From Candidatus Forterrea multitransposorum CG_2015-17_Forterrea_25_41 (GTDB lineage Archaea > Iainarchaeota > Iainarchaeia > Iainarchaeales > CSSED10-239), in assembly GCA_009392915.1 (NCBI GenBank), contig CP045477.1, forward strand, positions 608,001 through 672,000: 64,000 bases of DNA, given 5' to 3'. Position 1 is the stretch's first letter. Each line of letters starts with the position of its first letter. This document shows, one piece after another, positions 11,908-25,543 of the stretch. The translations under genes were made by a program, and so were the position numbers. Under the pieces are notes generated by a model that saw only the letters and a list, made by a program, of their open reading frames with translations, was not told the origin of the DNA and searched no databases.

Positions 11908-12558
11908 TTAAAGAATACTTGAAAAGAAATACATAATAACAAATAAAATAATTGTCATAACAATATTTCCTAAAACTTCAAAATTAAACATTTTTTTTAC
12001 AAAATGATAAAACATTAAAATATAATAAACTAATAAAGCTATTGAAAAAATAAATAATAAAATTAATCCAACAACAGCTCCTCCACCTAAATTAGGAAGC
12101 ATACCTGAATTATAGATGTAATCTGGATTTTGAATTGCCATTGACATAAAAGGAATTACTTTTGGCATAAAAATTAAAACAATTGCAAAAACAACTAATA
12201 TTGCAATAATAGAAACTATTCTAAAAGCCGCAAGAGAAGAAAGTATGTTTTTTAGTTCTCCACCTTTTAGATTATTCTTACCTTTTACAAAATAAAGTAT
12301 TAAATAAATAATTATTCCTAAAATAAACCAACTAAAAACAAAAGTTATAATTAATCTAATTGTAAAATAGGATAATACATTTGGTGACTTTAACAAAAAT
12401 AAAACTAAAGTTTCAATAAAAATTGAAATGAAAATTACAATCGCAGCAGTAGAAACATCTACTTTTTCATAAAAATGATTAATTAGTTTTTTTGGATTAA
12501 AACTAACAATTTCTTTTTCATCTTCAATTAAGTTTTTCTTTTTAAGTCTAGCAACCAT
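11908..12558 (-). CDS. Integral membrane protein (unknown function)
   Basis: At least 5 hydrophobic helices. No catalytic Asp motifs. Confidence 0.4.
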   Translation of the reverse strand: MVARLKKKNLIEDEKEIVSFNPKKLINHFYEKVDVSTAAIVIFISIFIETLVLFLLKSPNVLSYFTIRLIITFVFSWFILGIIIYLILYFVKGKNNLKGGELKNILSSLAAFRIVSIIAILVVFAIVLIFMPKVIPFMSMAIQNPDYIYNSGMLPNLGGGAVVGLILLFIFSIALLVYYILMFYHFVKKMFNFEVLGNIVMTIILFVIMYFFSSIL

Positions 12559-19933: not shown

Positions 19934-20725
19934 TTAATCTTCAAACAATTCTGAATCTATTAAATATTCTTTCTTTTGTTTTTTAGGTTTTATTACAGAA
20001 TTTTTAATAACAAAATTTTTAATAGATTTTTCAAGAGTATCTCTAAAGATTAAAATAATAGATAATAAAATAATAAATATAATTATTAAATAATAAAAAA
20101 TATTTGAATCACTTGACCCAACAAGTACAAAACTTGGTTTTGGAGGTTTTTTTTCATAAATTAAAACTTTTATTTGGTTTGTTGAAAAACTATTCCAGTA
20201 AAGAGTATTATCAACAATCTCTGCTTTAGGGTTTGTATCTCTAAAAACTAAAGGATCGTAGACTTTTATAGATAATTTTGAATTAGAAGGAATTACATAA
20301 AGATTATTAACAATTAAACTTCTAAATAAATTTTCATTAAACTTCCAAAGAATATCATCTTCTGTTTCATAGAAATTTTCTAATATTAAATCAGATATTT
20401 CATAATTAATATTTATTTGATCTTTTGTTTCATCAAAAATAATAGAAACATTTGAAAAATCATTTAAATAAATATTAGGTTTTAATCTTGGATCAATTTC
20501 TTCAAATTTATCAAGATCTATATTTGCAGCAATTATTTGGTTTTTAAAATTAACTTTATCATTATAGATATAAGGGTTATAAGATACATCCCAAACTTCT
20601 TTAATAATTGCCTTATCTGGACTTTTAATATCAATAGTTATATTAAAATTAGTAATTTCTGCAGAATAAACAGTAGAGGCAAATAAAAAAATTAAGAAAA
20701 ATATTAATAATTGTTTATATTTCAT
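19934..20725 (-). CDS. Secreted hypothetical protein with C-terminal TM anchor
   Basis: N-terminal signal peptide and C-terminal hydrophobic helix. Confidence 0.35.
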   Translation of the reverse strand: MKYKQLLIFFLIFLFASTVYSAEITNFNITIDIKSPDKAIIKEVWDVSYNPYIYNDKVNFKNQIIAANIDLDKFEEIDPRLKPNIYLNDFSNVSIIFDETKDQININYEISDLILENFYETEDDILWKFNENLFRSLIVNNLYVIPSNSKLSIKVYDPLVFRDTNPKAEIVDNTLYWNSFSTNQIKVLIYEKKPPKPSFVLVGSSDSNIFYYLIIIFIILLSIILIFRDTLEKSIKNFVIKNSVIKPKKQKKEYLIDSELFED

Positions 20726-20859
20726 TTTAATAATCTACTCTTTATTTTTTAAATTGGTTTAATGTTTATTTACTAATATTAAACTAATCTATATAATATA
20801 TTGTAGAAATAAGTTTATATACCTTTTTAATATTGTAAATAAAAGTAAAAGAGTAATAT

Positions 20860-21891
20860 TTAAAAGATCCTATCAAAACCATTTATTTCAAAAACATAAA
20901 TTAATAAATTATAAGAATTAGCATAATTTGCATACCCTAAAAAAGAAAAAAGAGAAGAATTAAAATTAATTAAAGAAATTTTTTTAGAATTTAATAAAAG
21001 ATTATTAAGTTTTTGTCTTTTTATAAATCTCTTAACATTTGATTTTCTTAGTTTTACTTTAGTTGGGTAAATTTTATAACCTAAAAAATCAACCCCTTTA
21101 TCTACTAAATTAATATAAGTTTTGTTTTTAGGAATTGTAAGTAACAAATTATTTTTTAAAAATAATTTAATTTTTCTTCTGAAAATACTTAACTCTTGTT
21201 TAGAATTTGAAAATATTAAAAAATCATCAACATACCTATAATAGTGTTTGATTTTTAAAGTATGCTTAATATATTGATCAAGCTCATTTAAATAGATATT
21301 TGCAAAAAGTTGAGAAGTTAAATTACCAATAGGAATTCCTTTTTTATTATTTAAAAACGAAAAAGAATAACTATCTATTATTTTATATATTATAACCAAT
21401 AATTGCTTGTCTTTAATTCTTTTTTTTATAATATATTTTAAAACCTCTTTTTCAATAGAAGGAAAATATTTTTTAACGTCTTGTTTTAAGTAATATTTAG
21501 GAGATTTTTTAGATTGAACTAATTTTTTTATTTCTAAAAAACCTTTAAAAGTACCTTTTCCTTTTCTACATGCAAAAGAATTATTTATAAAAGTTTTATC
21601 AAAGATAGGCTCAATAATATTTATAATTGCATGTTGAACAACGACATCTCTAAAACAAGGAGCACTAATAATTCTTTCTTTAGGTTCATATACCTTAAAA
21701 TTTCTATATGGAGAAAAATTAAAATTACCAGAAATTAATTCTTCTTGTATTAAAAATAATTCTTTTTCAAGATTTTGAGTAAATTTTAAAATATATTTCT
21801 TATTAGGATTTGATTTTCTGGCACGTTTATATGCATTATAAATGTTTTTAAAAGAAGTAAATTCTTCCCAAAGATTATTATATGATTTCAT
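20860..21891 (-). CDS. DGR-type reverse transcriptase
   Basis: RT motifs including catalytic YVDD (YRYVDDFLIFS) and the DGR-specific motif-4 signature IGNLTSQ. Lies directly downstream of the template repeat. Confidence 0.88.
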   Translation of the reverse strand: MKSYNNLWEEFTSFKNIYNAYKRARKSNPNKKYILKFTQNLEKELFLIQEELISGNFNFSPYRNFKVYEPKERIISAPCFRDVVVQHAIINIIEPIFDKTFINNSFACRKGKGTFKGFLEIKKLVQSKKSPKYYLKQDVKKYFPSIEKEVLKYIIKKRIKDKQLLVIIYKIIDSYSFSFLNNKKGIPIGNLTSQLFANIYLNELDQYIKHTLKIKHYYRYVDDFLIFSNSKQELSIFRRKIKLFLKNNLLLTIPKNKTYINLVDKGVDFLGYKIYPTKVKLRKSNVKRFIKRQKLNNLLLNSKKISLINFNSSLFSFLGYANYANSYNLLIYVFEINGFDRIF

Positions 21892-22124
21892 TTTTTATAG
21901 AACCTATTAAAAATTAAAAGTTATTACAGATTTCTTTAATCTAATAAAATTAAAATACTAAATGTAATAACTTATTTTTATATTCGATTTTTAAAACATA
22001 AAAACAAAAATGTTTTTATGGCATACCTTATATGCAATCAGGAAACATTTTACAGATGTAGTTTTTAGAATATACACTTTGCATATTTTAAAAAATAAAA
22101 ATAAATATACAAACTCTGATAAAA

Positions 22125-22146
22125 CCTTATTTCTTTAAAAATAAGG
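22125..22146 (-). other. Stem-loop abutting the 3' end of the DGR template repeat
   Basis: ccttattt-ctttaaa-aataagg gives a perfect 8-bp inverted repeat, 2 nt from the TR boundary. Confidence 0.4.
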
Positions 22147-22148
22147 AG

Positions 22149-22269
22149 AAACTACTGAACACAGCGCAGGCCGATGTTGTTGTTCCGGTTCCCAGGAGTA
22201 TTGTTCAAGTTCAAGTTCAAGACCCCTGCATTAGTTCCATTGTTCCAGTTACCACCGCGCAGGAAAGAA
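22149..22269 (-). repeat. DGR template repeat (TR)
   Basis: 121-nt GC-rich repeat, 101/121 identical to the 3' end of the target gene. On the gene strand every mismatch is an A in this copy, including repeated AAC codons. Not inside an ORF. Confidence 0.88.
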
Positions 22270-22345
22270 ACGACTCCTTTTTCTGTAAAAGCCCTATTCT
22301 TTTTATAACTAAAAAGAACAAAATAAATAATTATTAGAAAAGTTT

Positions 22346-22675
22346 TTATAAATTATGCTTTAAAAGCCCCCCAATTAATTTACCTAAATCATTTAGTTTT
22401 TTAGAAATAACTTCATATTTTTTAAAAGAAATAATTTTTAGATCAAAAGAGAGCCTCACATATATTTTTAAAAGTTCTAAATCAGTATCAATTTGATTTA
22501 AAGTATTAATTTTATGTTTTGAAAAAAGAATAGTATTAGATAATAAAGAAATAGTAGTTTTTTTCAAATCTTCTCCTAAAATATATTTGTCAGATTTAGG
22601 AAATTTTTTAATTTCAGGATAAATATAAAGTAAAAAGTTATATGTTTCTTTATATAACTTTAAATCAAATAACAT
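22346..22675 (-). CDS. avd: Avd (DGR accessory variability determinant); four-helix-bundle family
   Basis: 109 aa basic protein. KLYKETYNFLLYIYPEIKKFPKSDKYILGEDL...LNDLGKLIGGLLKH matches the Avd/23S-IVS four-helix-bundle pattern. Located between target gene and TR. Confidence 0.7.
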   Translation of the reverse strand: MLFDLKLYKETYNFLLYIYPEIKKFPKSDKYILGEDLKKTTISLLSNTILFSKHKINTLNQIDTDLELLKIYVRLSFDLKIISFKKYEVISKKLNDLGKLIGGLLKHNL

Positions 22676-22685
22676 ATTATAAACA

Positions 22686-23093
22686 CTATTTTTTATTTTC
22701 TTCTATTTTTTTTATAAGTCCATTAAAATATTTAATTTTTTCTTCAAATTGATTATAAAAAAAAAGAATTTTATCTTTAGATAAATCTTTATTAATTTCA
22801 CTTAATATAAGTAAATTTGATTGAGTTGTAGAAACACAATCTCTTGAATAAGAATAAAGTAATGATTTTTCATTAGAATGATATTTATTATATCCTTTTG
22901 ATAAAAAAGAAAGAATATTTATTAAATTTGAAATAGTTTCTTGAAAAATAAAATTATCATTTATAGATGATTTATTTTCTTCTAAAAATTTATAAGTATT
23001 AATAACTAAAGGAAAGAGTTCTTTGTAAACCCCAAAATTTAAAATTCCTCTTTCTATATTTACTAAACTCATAACAACCATATTTTTGTCCAA
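22686..23093 (-). CDS. Hypothetical protein inside the DGR cassette (possible second accessory factor)
   Basis: 135 aa ORF, co-oriented, between the target gene and avd. No recognisable motif. Confidence 0.35.
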   Translation of the reverse strand: MDKNMVVMSLVNIERGILNFGVYKELFPLVINTYKFLEENKSSINDNFIFQETISNLINILSFLSKGYNKYHSNEKSLLYSYSRDCVSTTQSNLLILSEINKDLSKDKILFFYNQFEEKIKYFNGLIKKIEENKK

Positions 23094-23267
23094 TATATAT
23101 TGTGATTTATTAAAACCACTTTAATTGAGTAGCAAATTTTTTTGTAAAAAACAAAAAAATTTGCAAAAGCAAAAAACATTTGCTTTCTCTTTTGCCAATT
23201 TATTTTTTTCTTTTTTCACTTTTATTTTTTATTTTTTTGCACAAACTCAATCTTGAAGCATTGTTTT

Positions 23268-23309
23268 TCGCGACGTTACCCGTCTTACCGTCTTGCCGTC
23301 TCACCCGTC
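23268..23309 (-). repeat. GC-rich tandem direct repeats 3' of the VR
   Basis: Four imperfect tandem copies of (a/g)(c)ccgtct(t/c) (gene strand GACGGNNA) in an otherwise AT-rich intergenic region, ~34 nt downstream of the target-gene stop. Confidence 0.4.
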
Positions 23310-23342
23310 AAAATACAATATTCTCGAAATACATTTTTTCAA

Positions 23343-23463
23343 AAACTACTGAACACAGCGCAGGCCGACGACGCTGCCCCGGCCCCCAGGAGTAAAGTTC
23401 AAGCGCAAGCCCAAGACCCCCGCATTAGTTCCACTGCCCCAGCCACCACCGCGCAGGAAAGAA
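23343..23463 (-). repeat. DGR variable repeat (VR) at the 3' end of the target gene
   Basis: 121-nt copy of the TR with 20 substitutions, all at TR-adenine positions (A to G/C/T on the gene strand). Spans the final 39 codons plus stop of ORF 23346-24707. Confidence 0.88.
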
Positions 23464-24707
23464 TATACAGTAGTAGAAGTATCTCCAAAATCACTATAAG
23501 TGTAAATTCTACCAACACCATTATCTGCTGCATTATAATTATTACTTGTAAGTAAAAATAAATCTTTATACTCTAAAGTGGTATTACCTAAATTATCAGA
23601 AGAAATGTATTGGGCTTCTCCACCACCTTTTGAATAATCAAAATAATCAAAACCAGTAGTAAAGTTACTATCATCAGCATTGTTAAAACCATCAGGTTGG
23701 TCTTTTCTTTGGATAGTGTCACTTGTCCATTGCCAAACATTACCAGCTAAGTCCCAAATTACTTCACCGTTTGTTAAAGTTAAGGTTCTTTTTGTAGTGC
23801 CAGAAAGTTCATCAAAACCTTCCATAGCACCAGAAGAAGAAGAATTACCACGTGGAAGATAACCTTCTCCAACAACTCCAGTTGACCAGTTTGAAGGTAC
23901 TTGTTCAATGTTTCTTGCAATGGTCATCCATTCGTCATTTGTTATTAAATGTCCACCTACTGCAGCACAAGCTGCAATAGCTTCGGTTTGGGAAATTCTT
24001 GCTATTGGAGAACCTTCTGGAGTTGATACTAAAGTGCCTGGAGTAGGACATAATTCATAACTATAAGTATTATAGGTTAAAGAACCAGTATTACAATCTG
24101 GATAATCAGCTACAAGGTTTCCTTTACCATCTCCATTTGCATCCATTTTCATTTCATATTTTGAAACACAAAAACCACCACGCTCATTCATGGTTCCATA
24201 TAAATGGTTTCCTGGAACTGGAACATAGCCTTCTGGACAAGAAAGAGGAGTTTTTACGGTTTGAAAAAGATCAGGTTTAGTTATCATTTGAGAATTGTCT
24301 AAATATAAAACTAAATCTAAAGAGTCACCTAAAATACCATGATCAAGAGTAGCAGATTGATTGGAAAGAATAGTGACAGGAGGTTCTAAAGGATTAATGT
24401 TTGAATTGCCTAATAAACTATAACCGGTAATGGTAATAGAAGTATAAGGAGAACCATAAGGGGGTTTATACTCTAGAAGAGAACGACCATTGATAGAAGA
24501 TTTAATATTTAAATAAAAGCCAGTTTCTGATTCTGTATAAACTTCAATACTTGAAGCTTTAGAAAAAGAATCATTGGTAAAGCCTTTACCCCAAGAAAGA
24601 ATAATACCAATAATAGCAACAGAGACAACTATTAAAAGAATGGTGGCTATCAAAGGAGAAATACCTTTTTGAAATCTAAAACGCTGAAAAATATATTTGA
24701 AAAACAT
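23346..24707 (-). CDS. DGR target protein: pilin-like surface protein with C-terminal FGE-sulfatase/C-type-lectin-fold variable domain
   Basis: N-terminus FQKG|ISPLIATILLIVVSVAIIG is an archaeal class III (prepilin) signal. C-terminal domain has the FGE hallmark AGNVWQWTSD and ends ...RGGGWGSGTNAGVLGLRLNFTPGGRGSVVGLRCVQ, which is encoded by the VR. Confidence 0.85.
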   Translation of the reverse strand: MFFKYIFQRFRFQKGISPLIATILLIVVSVAIIGIILSWGKGFTNDSFSKASSIEVYTESETGFYLNIKSSINGRSLLEYKPPYGSPYTSITITGYSLLGNSNINPLEPPVTILSNQSATLDHGILGDSLDLVLYLDNSQMITKPDLFQTVKTPLSCPEGYVPVPGNHLYGTMNERGGFCVSKYEMKMDANGDGKGNLVADYPDCNTGSLTYNTYSYELCPTPGTLVSTPEGSPIARISQTEAIAACAAVGGHLITNDEWMTIARNIEQVPSNWSTGVVGEGYLPRGNSSSSGAMEGFDELSGTTKRTLTLTNGEVIWDLAGNVWQWTSDTIQRKDQPDGFNNADDSNFTTGFDYFDYSKGGGEAQYISSDNLGNTTLEYKDLFLLTSNNYNAADNGVGRIYTYSDFGDTSTTVYSFLRGGGWGSGTNAGVLGLRLNFTPGGRGSVVGLRCVQ

Positions 24708-24847
24708 AAGGGATCAAAATTAAAGTTAATTAAAATATAATATTATAAAAGAAGAATATATTTATAAACATAATGATTAAAGAGAAAAAAGGAAAAAAGT
24801 TAAAAAAACAATACTCTTTAAATAAAAATTGGTTTATATAATTATAT

Positions 24848-25543
24848 ATGAGTATAAGTATTAAATATCTTGGACACTCATCATTTCTGTTAACTATCGA
24901 TAAAAAGAATATTTTAACAGACCCTTTTTTTAAAAATGATTCGTTAGGAAAAATGGAAAGATTAGTCCCTTGTCATCATAAAGTTGAAGATCTTCCAAAG
25001 ATTGACTCTATTTTAATAAGTCACGAACACACAGATTCTTTCGATAAAGATTCAGTAAACTATTTATCTAAAAAATATAATCCAAAGATTATATCTCATT
25101 ACAGTATCTTGAAAGATATTGAAGGTCTTGAACATAATAAAGTTTCAATTGAAGAATATCAATCAAAAGATATCAATAACATAAATATTCAAGCTCTTCC
25201 TGCACATCACCCTGGTGCGTTTTATCCTTTAAGTTTTTTAATTAAAAACAAAAAAGGAAAAACTGTTTATTTTGCAGGAGACACTTATATGACAAAAGAC
25301 CATGACACTATAAAACCTGACATTGCACTTTTACCAATTGGTGGAAAAAGAACAATGGATCTTGGAACTGCAATTAGGGTTATGAAAAAAATGAGACCTA
25401 AGTTTGTAATTCCAATGCATTATGATACTTTTGAAGATATTAAAAGAAATCCTCAAGAATTAATCTATAGGTTTGGAAAAAACTATACAGATGTTAATAC
25501 AGTTATTTTAAATCCAGGTAAAACTTTTAAATTTAAAAATTAA
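24848..25543 (+). CDS. Metallo-beta-lactamase-fold metal-dependent hydrolase (UPF0173-like)
   Basis: N-terminus KYLGHSSFLL and His cluster ISHEHTDSFD. Confidence 0.7.
   Translation: MSISIKYLGHSSFLLTIDKKNILTDPFFKNDSLGKMERLVPCHHKVEDLPKIDSILISHEHTDSFDKDSVNYLSKKYNPKIISHYSILKDIEGLEHNKVSIEEYQSKDINNINIQALPAHHPGAFYPLSFLIKNKKGKTVYFAGDTYMTKDHDTIKPDIALLPIGGKRTMDLGTAIRVMKKMRPKFVIPMHYDTFEDIKRNPQELIYRFGKNYTDVNTVILNPGKTFKFKN

Follow-up and report, generated by a model that had tools for sequence, protein, structure and literature searches.

The template RNA of the BPP-1 diversity-generating retroelement (DGR) has a described architecture (Handa et al. 2018 NAR; bioRxiv 10.1101/2023.10.23.563531; PDB 8ub7), in which a template:primer duplex is followed by a linker, the cPRT Stop duplex, a stem-loop and adenines (Handa et al.). 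In the structure of the BPP-1 particle of reverse transcriptase (RT), Avd and RNA, Avd contacts a stem-loop and flipped-out RNA bases through equivalent protomers, and putative Avd-binding stem-loops, commonly of 9 bp with tetraloops, were found just 3' of the template repeat (TR) in 207 of 278 DGRs (Handa et al., bioRxiv 10.1101/2023.10.23.563531). The homing step, at the variable repeat (VR), is described as poorly understood in recent papers. Here we analysed two elements of an archaeal DGR, a hairpin next to the TR and a tandem array of GACGG units past the VR, in a 64,000-nucleotide stretch of Candidatus Forterrea multitransposorum (assembly GCA_009392915.1, contig CP045477.1, positions 608,001 to 672,000), called the window below. 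We hold with moderate confidence that hairpin and array are cis elements of one DGR and stand on opposite sides of information transfer.

All features of the locus lie on the minus strand of the window (hereafter the gene strand), where the order C-type-lectin target, VR, GACGG array, Avd-like open reading frame (ORF), bAvd, TR, spacer and RT makes up a complete DGR. TR (22149..22269) and VR (23343..23463), each of 121 nt, share 83% identity, and all of their roughly 20 differences fall on TR adenines. The DGR setting assumed in the sequence-only reading that preceded this work (an RVT_1 RT, a bAvd protein, an FGE-sulfatase/C-type-lectin target and a 121-nt repeat pair differing only at TR adenines) was thus recovered in full: with repeats, RT, Avd and target fold all in place, the locus is a DGR. 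The VR ends at the stop codon of the target gene (TAG, 23348-23346). Since the last 26 nt of the VR (23343-23368, TCGGCCTGCGCTGTGTTCAGTAGTTT, with a GC-rich block at their start) are exactly the TR sequence, the distinction between recipient and donor must lie further downstream; that recognition must extend downstream has also been stated for identical copies of the initiation of mutagenic homing sequences IMH and IMH* (Wu et al.).

Downstream of the target stop codon, after a gap of 36 nt (about 34 nt in the sequence-only reading), four tandem GC-rich units are indeed present. They form an array of four GACGG cores (23280..23309, unit AGACGGNN, spacing 9-8-8), previously listed as a CCGTCT array, which reads GACGGGTGA GACGGCAA GACGGTAA GACGG-GTAACGTC on the gene strand from 23309 to 23272 and comprises four AGACGG units. 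Tandem Repeats Finder assigned it a period of 8. GACGG occurs five times on both strands of the 64 kb, four of them in the array; by chance, about 2e-11 such clusters would be expected. The GC content of the window is 25%, below the approximately 30% given earlier for the genome. The word 'structured', which had been applied to the array as well, proved wrong: the 91 nt around it folded no better than shuffled sequences (z +0.22 on the gene strand, -0.71 on the other strand), and what is present is a direct repeat instead of a structure. The only local pairing, seen in the centroid structure, is a mini-hairpin GACG-GGTAA-CGTC (23272..23284) with the last array unit as its 5' arm; in relatives its place is taken by CGG-GAAA-CCG or CGG-AAAA-CCG, and its sequence is not conserved. 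Between stop codon and array lies a conserved AT-rich block (AATGTATTT..TGTATTTT, 23310..23335).

We collected relatives via the RT and the accessory ORF that lies between VR and bAvd (loci are denoted by L numbers). The array was present in every relative whose contig spans the VR flank, that is, in seven further distinct relatives, which settles one check proposed in the sequence-only reading, conservation in related DGR loci. L005 and L084 carry GACGGGTAA GACGGCAA GACGGCAA GACGG, L081/82 GACGGGTGA GACGGCAA GACGGCAA GACGG, L085-88 GACGGGTGA GACGGCTA GACGGCAA GACGG, L305/306 GACGGGTAA GACGGCCA GACGGCAA GACGG and L308/309 GACGGATAA GACGGCCA GACGGCCA GACGG, while in L307 three full units are followed by a fourth cut down to ACGG. 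In all loci with four full units, i.e. all but L307, the spacing is 9-8-8. Mean column identity reached 99.4% in the cores, compared with 84% in the spacers, 83% in the stretch from stop codon to array, 69% downstream of the array and 87% in the constant coding end of the VR. In L085 the array is intact despite a strongly diverged stop-to-array stretch, and in L305 it was retained although a canonical 10-bp GAAA hairpin and some 40 nt have been inserted in front of it. This canonical DGR hairpin (AGCCTTTCTT-GAAA-AGAAAGGCT, L305:645-667, also in L306) begins 3 nt past the stop codon, with the array about 60 nt further on; within the lineage it occurs in L305/306 only, L085 retains a remnant (TCTTT-AAAAG-AAAGA), and the window has none.

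The other check was whether the GC-rich units are a generic genomic repeat. We found one array in the 64 kb of the window. In 184 kb of lineage DNA each locus had a single array, in every case 3' of the VR in gene-strand orientation, and none lay near the TR. Because of this fixed place, together with the spacing and the conservation of the cores, the array is not a product of chance, a generic repeat or a free-running microsatellite. Searching metagenome and viral collections with the pattern GACGG-N3-4-GACGG-N3-GACGG-N3-GACGG returned unrelated GACG/GACA microsatellites and, among the matches listed, nothing similar to the array of the DGR. L085-88 are decayed DGRs with a diversified VR and an intact GACGG array: the TR is cut just before its GC-rich 3' block (L085:4880-5040, also L086-L088), and no intact RT follows.

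Tandem units beside the VR are not confined to this lineage. From 234 loci we obtained 165 TR/VR pairs, which were dereplicated by VR-flank similarity into 70 clusters, and the autocorrelation of the flanks at each lag was compared with dinucleotide shuffles. In the VR 3' flanks, lags 7 and 8 stood out (z 7.3 and 6.0) and the other lags stayed near zero; TR 3' flanks of the 70 clusters gave no signal at any lag. Repeats of 7-8 nt were significant in 21 of 70 VR 3' flanks at p <= 0.05 (14 of 70 at p <= 0.01), versus 3 of 70 TR 3' flanks (1 of 70), 5 of 70 VR flanks for the control lags 10/11 (0 of 70) and 7 of 136 flanks 3' of other genes from these loci (2 of 136). These arrays start 0-31 nt past the end of homology and, read by eye, lead directly into a GC-rich GRNA-loop hairpin in at least a dozen of the top-scoring clusters; in several, among them L009, L381 and L356, the last unit lies within the 5' arm of the hairpin. 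YTGR cores are frequent (ATCTGAA; ACTGAAT/CCTGAAT; ACCCTGA GCCCTGG TAACTGA AACCTGA), and both VRs of L363 have ATTTAGNN arrays. In the archaeal relative L004, the corresponding place is occupied by CTGAC/CTGG (CTGR) units, a pair of GTCCGTT units and a hairpin of 10 bp. Both cases speak for a tie between units and VR. By sequence, the window array thus appears to be a local, very regular form of a general layout composed of VR, 3-5 tandem 7-8-nt units and a hairpin. In the DGR literature that we searched, which names only (GC)14, IMH and the inverted repeat as elements, such 7-8-nt units beside the VR were not described, which is not proof of novelty. Arrays of four to five GACGGAAA units were also seen in non-coding DNA of two AT-rich viral contigs (L220:140-180 and L298), with no obvious link to a DGR.

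On the donor side, the inverted repeat reported at 22125-22146, 2 nt from the TR end, is real. Its gene-strand arms CCTTATTT (22146-22139) and AAATAAGG (22132-22125) are perfectly complementary, and RNAfold lengthened the stem to 9 bp (the last pair being U.G), closed by a UAAA tetraloop, at -7.1 kcal/mol. The stem begins 2 nt past 22149, where TR/VR identity ends. Perfect 8-bp hairpins are common in the window (89 versus about 45 in shuffles, roughly one per 720 nt), and the significance of this one comes from its conservation in relatives and not from its fold score. The stem-loop was kept at the identical place while the stem sequences changed: CCTTATT-GAA-AATAAGG in L081/82, CCTTATTA/TAATGAGG in L001, CCTTAAA..TTTAAGG in L307, an 11-bp stem ACTATCTTTTC-AAGT-GAAAAGATAGT in L003 and ACCCACA-TTACT-TGTGGGT in L004. 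In an alignment of eight sequences, 86% of the cells of this helix (helix 6 of our RNA model) were paired and four pairs had changed on both sides. From its position and shape we infer that the hairpin is the Avd-docking stem-loop of the DGR RNA. Elements of this kind are ordinary parts of DGRs and known from earlier work; the archaeal member is new.

The remaining template RNA could be modelled around this hairpin. Upstream of the TR lie a further hairpin (TTCTTTTT..AAAAAGAA, 22297..22318; helix 1, four pairs changed on both sides, 68% of cells paired) and, 13 nt from the TR, the 5' strand UUUUACAGA (22282..22290) of a long-range duplex of the cPRT Stop type. The 3' end of the TR, GUAGUUU (22155-22149), pairs with the spacer primer strand AAACUAC (22064-22058), which together with the invariant A at 22057 forms the candidate priming region (22057..22064); these helices 4 and 5 are 98-100% paired and contain one compensatory change, in L307, where the stop codon change TAG>TAA is matched by C>U in the primer strand. 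One nucleotide after the primer strand follows UCUGUAAAA (22048..22056), the 3' strand of the stop-type duplex, which pairs with UUUUACAGA (helix 3, 79% paired, three pairs changed on both sides); the corresponding duplexes of L003 (TCAGTATATT/AATATACTGA) and L004 (TTTGGTATA/TATACTAAA) are unrelated in sequence to that of the window. A second spacer stem-loop (UUUGUAUAUUU..AAAUAUGCAAA, 22078..22113; helix 7) is 92% paired with three pairs changed on both sides, and a short stem-loop GCAUA-UAAGG-UAUGC (22021..22035; helix 8, 95% paired, C-G to U-A in three sequences) precedes an A-rich run. Taken as a whole, the model paired 86% of cells in the eight sequences versus 44-56% when the partners were slid, with 16 pairs changed on both sides, and none of 500 shuffles reached the observed values. 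By position, A 22057 or A 22059 is the candidate priming adenosine, whose 2'-OH would start the cDNA. The hairpin had earlier been proposed as structured TR-flanking RNA for cDNA priming; it does belong to such RNA, but the putative priming site lies about 85 nt further 3'.

Judged by this covariation, the template RNA probably has a cis-priming architecture like that of BPP-1, with the hairpin as its first element. In both systems a stem-loop lies directly 3' of the TR (Sp3-33 of BPP-1, 11 bp plus tetraloop, versus 9 bp plus tetraloop in the window), the TR 3' end pairs with one strand of the spacer, the neighbouring strand pairs with a segment upstream of the TR, and a short stem-loop and adenines follow. 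The differences are several. The spacer comprises 140 nt in BPP-1 and 257 nt in the window; the linker between the duplex strands is 2 nt in BPP-1 and 1 nt here; and the upstream duplex strand lies inside avd in BPP-1, whereas in the window it is non-coding, 56 nt past the avd stop codon. The stem-loops at 22297-22318, upstream of the stop-duplex strand, and at 22078-22113, between docking hairpin and primer strand, are conserved, covary and have no counterpart in BPP-1. Finally, the host of the window DGR is an archaeon.

At the VR, the array resembles the IMH of BPP-1 in being a VR-side sequence absent from the TR side, in falling in the interval between GC-rich block and hairpin and in that it could set the direction of transfer. 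The BPP-1 IMH differs from it, being 21 bp long, directly adjoining the VR and representing a diverged version of IMH* (Guo 2011, PMC3240598; Naorem 2017, PMC5703328). In the window, by contrast, the ends of VR and TR are identical over 26 nt, and the array, with its four exact cores, stands apart as a block without homology to them at a distance of 36 nt. IMH/IMH* and (GC)14 of BPP-1 reportedly go back to Doulatov in 2004. Defined as a sequence at the VR 3' end that adjoins a GC-rich block and is matched by a non-identical TR counterpart, IMH does not include the array, which may be IMH-like in function but is not an IMH by the BPP-1 definition. The BPP-1 IMH (TCTGTGACCACCTGATTCTTGAG) itself contains three TGA at steps of 8 and 7 nt, and IMH* (TCTGTGCCCATCACCTTCTTGCA) is without all three (L449:1058-1083 versus 1614-1639). 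The general arrays thereby fall in the experimentally defined recognition region. The loss of TGA in IMH* may be a by-product of better pairing between IMH and spacer primer, or IMH may itself be a short array. Naorem et al. (2017, PMC5703328) trace the difference between IMH and IMH* to the spacer primer linked to the cDNA, which would pair better with IMH; in agreement with this, IMH of BPP-1 paired better with Sp47-56 in our own check, and complementarity between VR flank and spacer was significant in 9 of 70 clusters.

The array also differs from the GC-rich hairpin of other DGRs, for which GC-rich stems of 7-10 bp, GRNA loops of 4 nt and positions 4-34 bp from the VR are given (Guo 2011, PMC3240598; MyDGR). 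The mini-hairpin at the array has a stem of 3-4 bp (4 bp in the window), a loop of 4-5 nt (5 nt in the window) and lies about 60 nt from the VR. The two are alike in that a small hairpin, whose loop is rich in purines (GGTAA in the window, GAAA in relatives), takes the last array unit as its 5' arm, and other DGRs likewise have an array leading into the hairpin. In BPP-1, a 6-bp shift of the hairpin lowers activity. Among archaeal systems, the DGRs of DUSEL4 (Nanoarchaeota) and ANMV-1 are comparable in coming from small-genome lineages and in carrying, close to the VR, short hairpins along with motifs of the IMH type (Paul et al. 2015, PMC4372165), but their IMH motifs are TGGGGT/TGGAAT, their GRA triloop hairpins lie inside the target gene, and no tandem array has been described (PMC4372165). 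The sequence-only reading had put the array forward for the role of IMH and downstream hairpin or cruciform. Its VR specificity and its conservation are those of a recipient-side cis element, yet it is no hairpin or cruciform and is not contiguous with the VR.

The genes around the two elements are those of a DGR. The target gene (23346..24707) encodes 453 aa with an FGE-sulfatase/C-type-lectin-fold domain (Pfam PF03781, E 3.6e-9) and carries the VR at its 3' end. It is separated from the accessory ORF by a 250-nt intergenic region that contains the array. The accessory ORF (ORF135, 22686..23072, about 128 aa from ATG 23072, with an alternative TTG start at 23093) is followed by the gene of the 109-aa bAvd protein (22346..22675; Pfam PF22296, E 2.1e-21), the TR, the spacer with the hairpin at its start and the gene of the 343-aa RT (20860..21891; Pfam RVT_1, E 1.7e-23). 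RT homologues lie within TR/VR cassettes: a TR/VR pair was present in 47 of the 80 loci of the first set, found via the window RT, and in the relative L005 all 18 of 18 TR/VR differences are at adenines. The RT has its closest named relatives in genome bins of Iainarchaeota (DPANN), and a protein identical to that of the accessory ORF is on record, annotated only as 'archaeon'. Between array and accessory ORF lies a palindrome with 12-nt arms (GCAAATTTTTTT-N9-AAAAAAATTTGC, 23132..23164) and T-runs, conserved in L081, L305 and L307. Archaeal transcription terminates at oligo-T, and these T-runs may mark the end of the target transcript. An Rfam scan of 20000-25500 at E <= 1 gave only a sub-threshold RNA-OUT match at the palindrome (E 0.47), probably by chance, and no curated family over hairpin or array.

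The accessory ORF deserves attention as a possible second Avd. It had no Pfam match, a profile comparison with bAvd detected no relationship, and a PDB sequence search returned nothing. Its AlphaFold model (pLDDT 85.6) is a four-helix bundle of the Avd/S23 type, and the PDB folds closest to it belong to proteins of the S23 family (2rld, 2gsc) and to Avd itself (4dwl, 8ub7_E). The link to the Avd family is drawn from fold comparison alone; on this modelled fold, the lineage apparently encodes a tandem pair of Avd-type proteins. With 15 clusters the family is tiny; it has a homologue in L004 (hhalign probability 99%).

How might hairpin and array act in one DGR? In the template RNA, the hairpin would dock Avd, and the RNA would recruit RT and Avd and prime cDNA synthesis on itself. 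The AAACUAC:GUAGUUU pairing would set the conserved A beside the start of the template, and the duplex with the segment 13 nt upstream of the TR would act as the polymerisation stop. On the other side, the array, with the mini-hairpin of its last unit, would mark the VR as recipient of the cDNA. We draw this role from the fact that the array is the only strongly conserved VR-specific candidate that we found downstream, and a recipient-marking, IMH-type element is its most likely role as judged from sequence comparison. The fixed orientation and an 8-nt step that is out of phase with duplex DNA suggest that the module would be read strand-specifically, most likely on the single-stranded sense strand. 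Its reader would most likely be the RT/Avd particle or the second Avd-like protein encoded beside it; a five-fold Avd-type particle is plausible in this position because BPP-1 Avd binds via equivalent protomers and the lineage has that second protein. We regard the array as a real conserved cis element, of a form undescribed to our knowledge, with a plausible role in homing.

Several observations weigh against this reading. The array lies 36 nt from the VR, and 83 nt in L305 with the canonical hairpin between, while the BPP-1 IMH abuts the VR. About 70% of the DGR VR flanks were without a significant array, and the GACGG core of the window differs from the YTGR cores of most other arrays. Complementarity between array and spacer was absent in the window lineage (z 0.16), and for this reason the pairing model of Naorem et al. 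does not account for the GACGG array. In L085-88 the array was kept although the TR has been cut short and fused with a piece of the RT gene in inverted orientation; given this truncation, its retention is not explained by an active local DGR. As for the RNA, the fold z-score of the hairpin (-1.2 on the gene strand) is by itself weak evidence, the model was read from the window sequence and checked on the eight related sequences only, and one of these, L310, does not fit the stop duplex.

A wider claim, which we put forward as tentative, is that tandem arrays of 3-5 units of 7-8 nt between VR and homing hairpin are a widespread DGR element in bacteria, phages and archaea that chooses the recipient repeat, a task that would then not fall to RNA pairing or the hairpin alone, with the archaeal GACGG array as the clearest example, replacing a canonical hairpin that decayed in this lineage. 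The units might then dock a five-fold Avd particle on single-stranded target DNA, or they might offer several pairing registers for the hairpin.

Other explanations of the array have to be weighed against a recipient mark. Tandem direct repeats are typical protein-binding sites, and the array stands in the intergenic region upstream of the accessory ORF, with the conserved palindrome and a TATA-like box nearby. It could be a platform for a regulator, either an operator or upstream element of the accessory-gene/TR/RT operon or a control of read-through out of the target gene, and have nothing to do with cDNA integration. We consider this unlikely. The probable promoter, with its TATA-like box about 25 nt before ATG 23072, lies some 170 nt downstream of the array, the distance from array to ORF ranges from about 105 to 250 nt among relatives, and an 8-bp spacing puts the 6-bp cores on different faces of duplex DNA. 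Moreover, the second, separate target gene of L363 has its own array, and the arrays of bacterial DGRs sit between VR and homing hairpin. Because T-runs first appear on the gene strand about 100 nt past the array, the target transcript probably includes it, and the array might act as RNA, in the 3' untranslated region of the target mRNA or in a long precursor, by binding an oligomeric RNA-binding protein, which might be Avd, the product of the Avd-like ORF or a factor of the host, and affecting stability or the contact between target RNA and RT particle. An 8-nt period would suit single-strand recognition, and Avd contacts flipped-out RNA bases with equivalent protomers. Position and orientation fit single-stranded DNA equally well, however, and the target mRNA has no known role in homing, which leaves this possibility rather improbable in our eyes.

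On the gene strand the array offers four evenly spaced G-runs (GGG/GG/GG/GGG), conspicuous at 25% GC, from which a DNA or RNA G-quadruplex could form and stall a polymerase beside the VR. Relatives with GG runs only (L308, GG four times) would be limited to two tetrads with 6-nt loops, for which little stability is expected; in AGACGG the A and the C are also invariant, although a quadruplex does not need them, and other DGR arrays (ATCTGAA, ATTTAGNN) are devoid of G-runs. A quadruplex is accordingly a very unlikely explanation. That the array is a neutral microsatellite or a scar of imprecise integration, and the hairpin a chance inverted repeat in AT-rich DNA, is disfavoured and deserves almost no credence: slippage can create short tandem repeats and AT-rich 8-bp hairpins are frequent, but unit number, spacing and cores stayed invariant while the accessory ORF diverged to 64-67% identity among the lineages with the array, and the hairpin was kept through compensatory changes. 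We rejected an integration scar also because the units are unlike TR end and spacer and the copy number is fixed. None of these rivals accounts as well as a recipient mark for the asymmetry between VR and TR across DGRs.

Some further candidates were dropped. A 7-nt match AGAATAT/AUAUUCU with the spacer, showing an apparent compensatory change in L081, is of a kind expected by chance in AT-rich sequence. A weak hairpin directly past the stop codon (UUUUUGAAA..UUUCGAGAA) needs two G.U pairs and was not kept in L005 or L085. CTG as a reputed DnaG primase site was abandoned, as Firmicute primases prefer other triplets and the archaeal array has no CTG.

Rearranged relatives were seen as well. In L001:5579-5760 and L002:5621-5800 and 11972-12150, a diversified VR is fused to the 3' flank of the TR (hairpin, spacer, RT), with array, accessory ORF, avd and TR missing; L001 shares its genomic context with the intact L081/L082. 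The fusion looks like a recombination deletion within the 26-nt VR/TR block, with assembly collapse as the alternative. L002:2072-12990, in a 671-kb contig, is an exact tandem duplication with a period of 6351 nt over target, VR and RT, in which the RT frame is fragmented.

How the cDNA of a DGR finds and replaces the VR is an open question, and a conserved, periodic, VR-specific element provides a concrete sequence to mutate. The lineage is a clean test case, with identical donor and recipient ends and without the canonical hairpin, and elements of the array type could sharpen the prediction of active targets in metagenomes. The hairpin result, in turn, carries the RNA architecture of BPP-1 to a DPANN-type archaeon and supports the conservation of cis-priming across domains.

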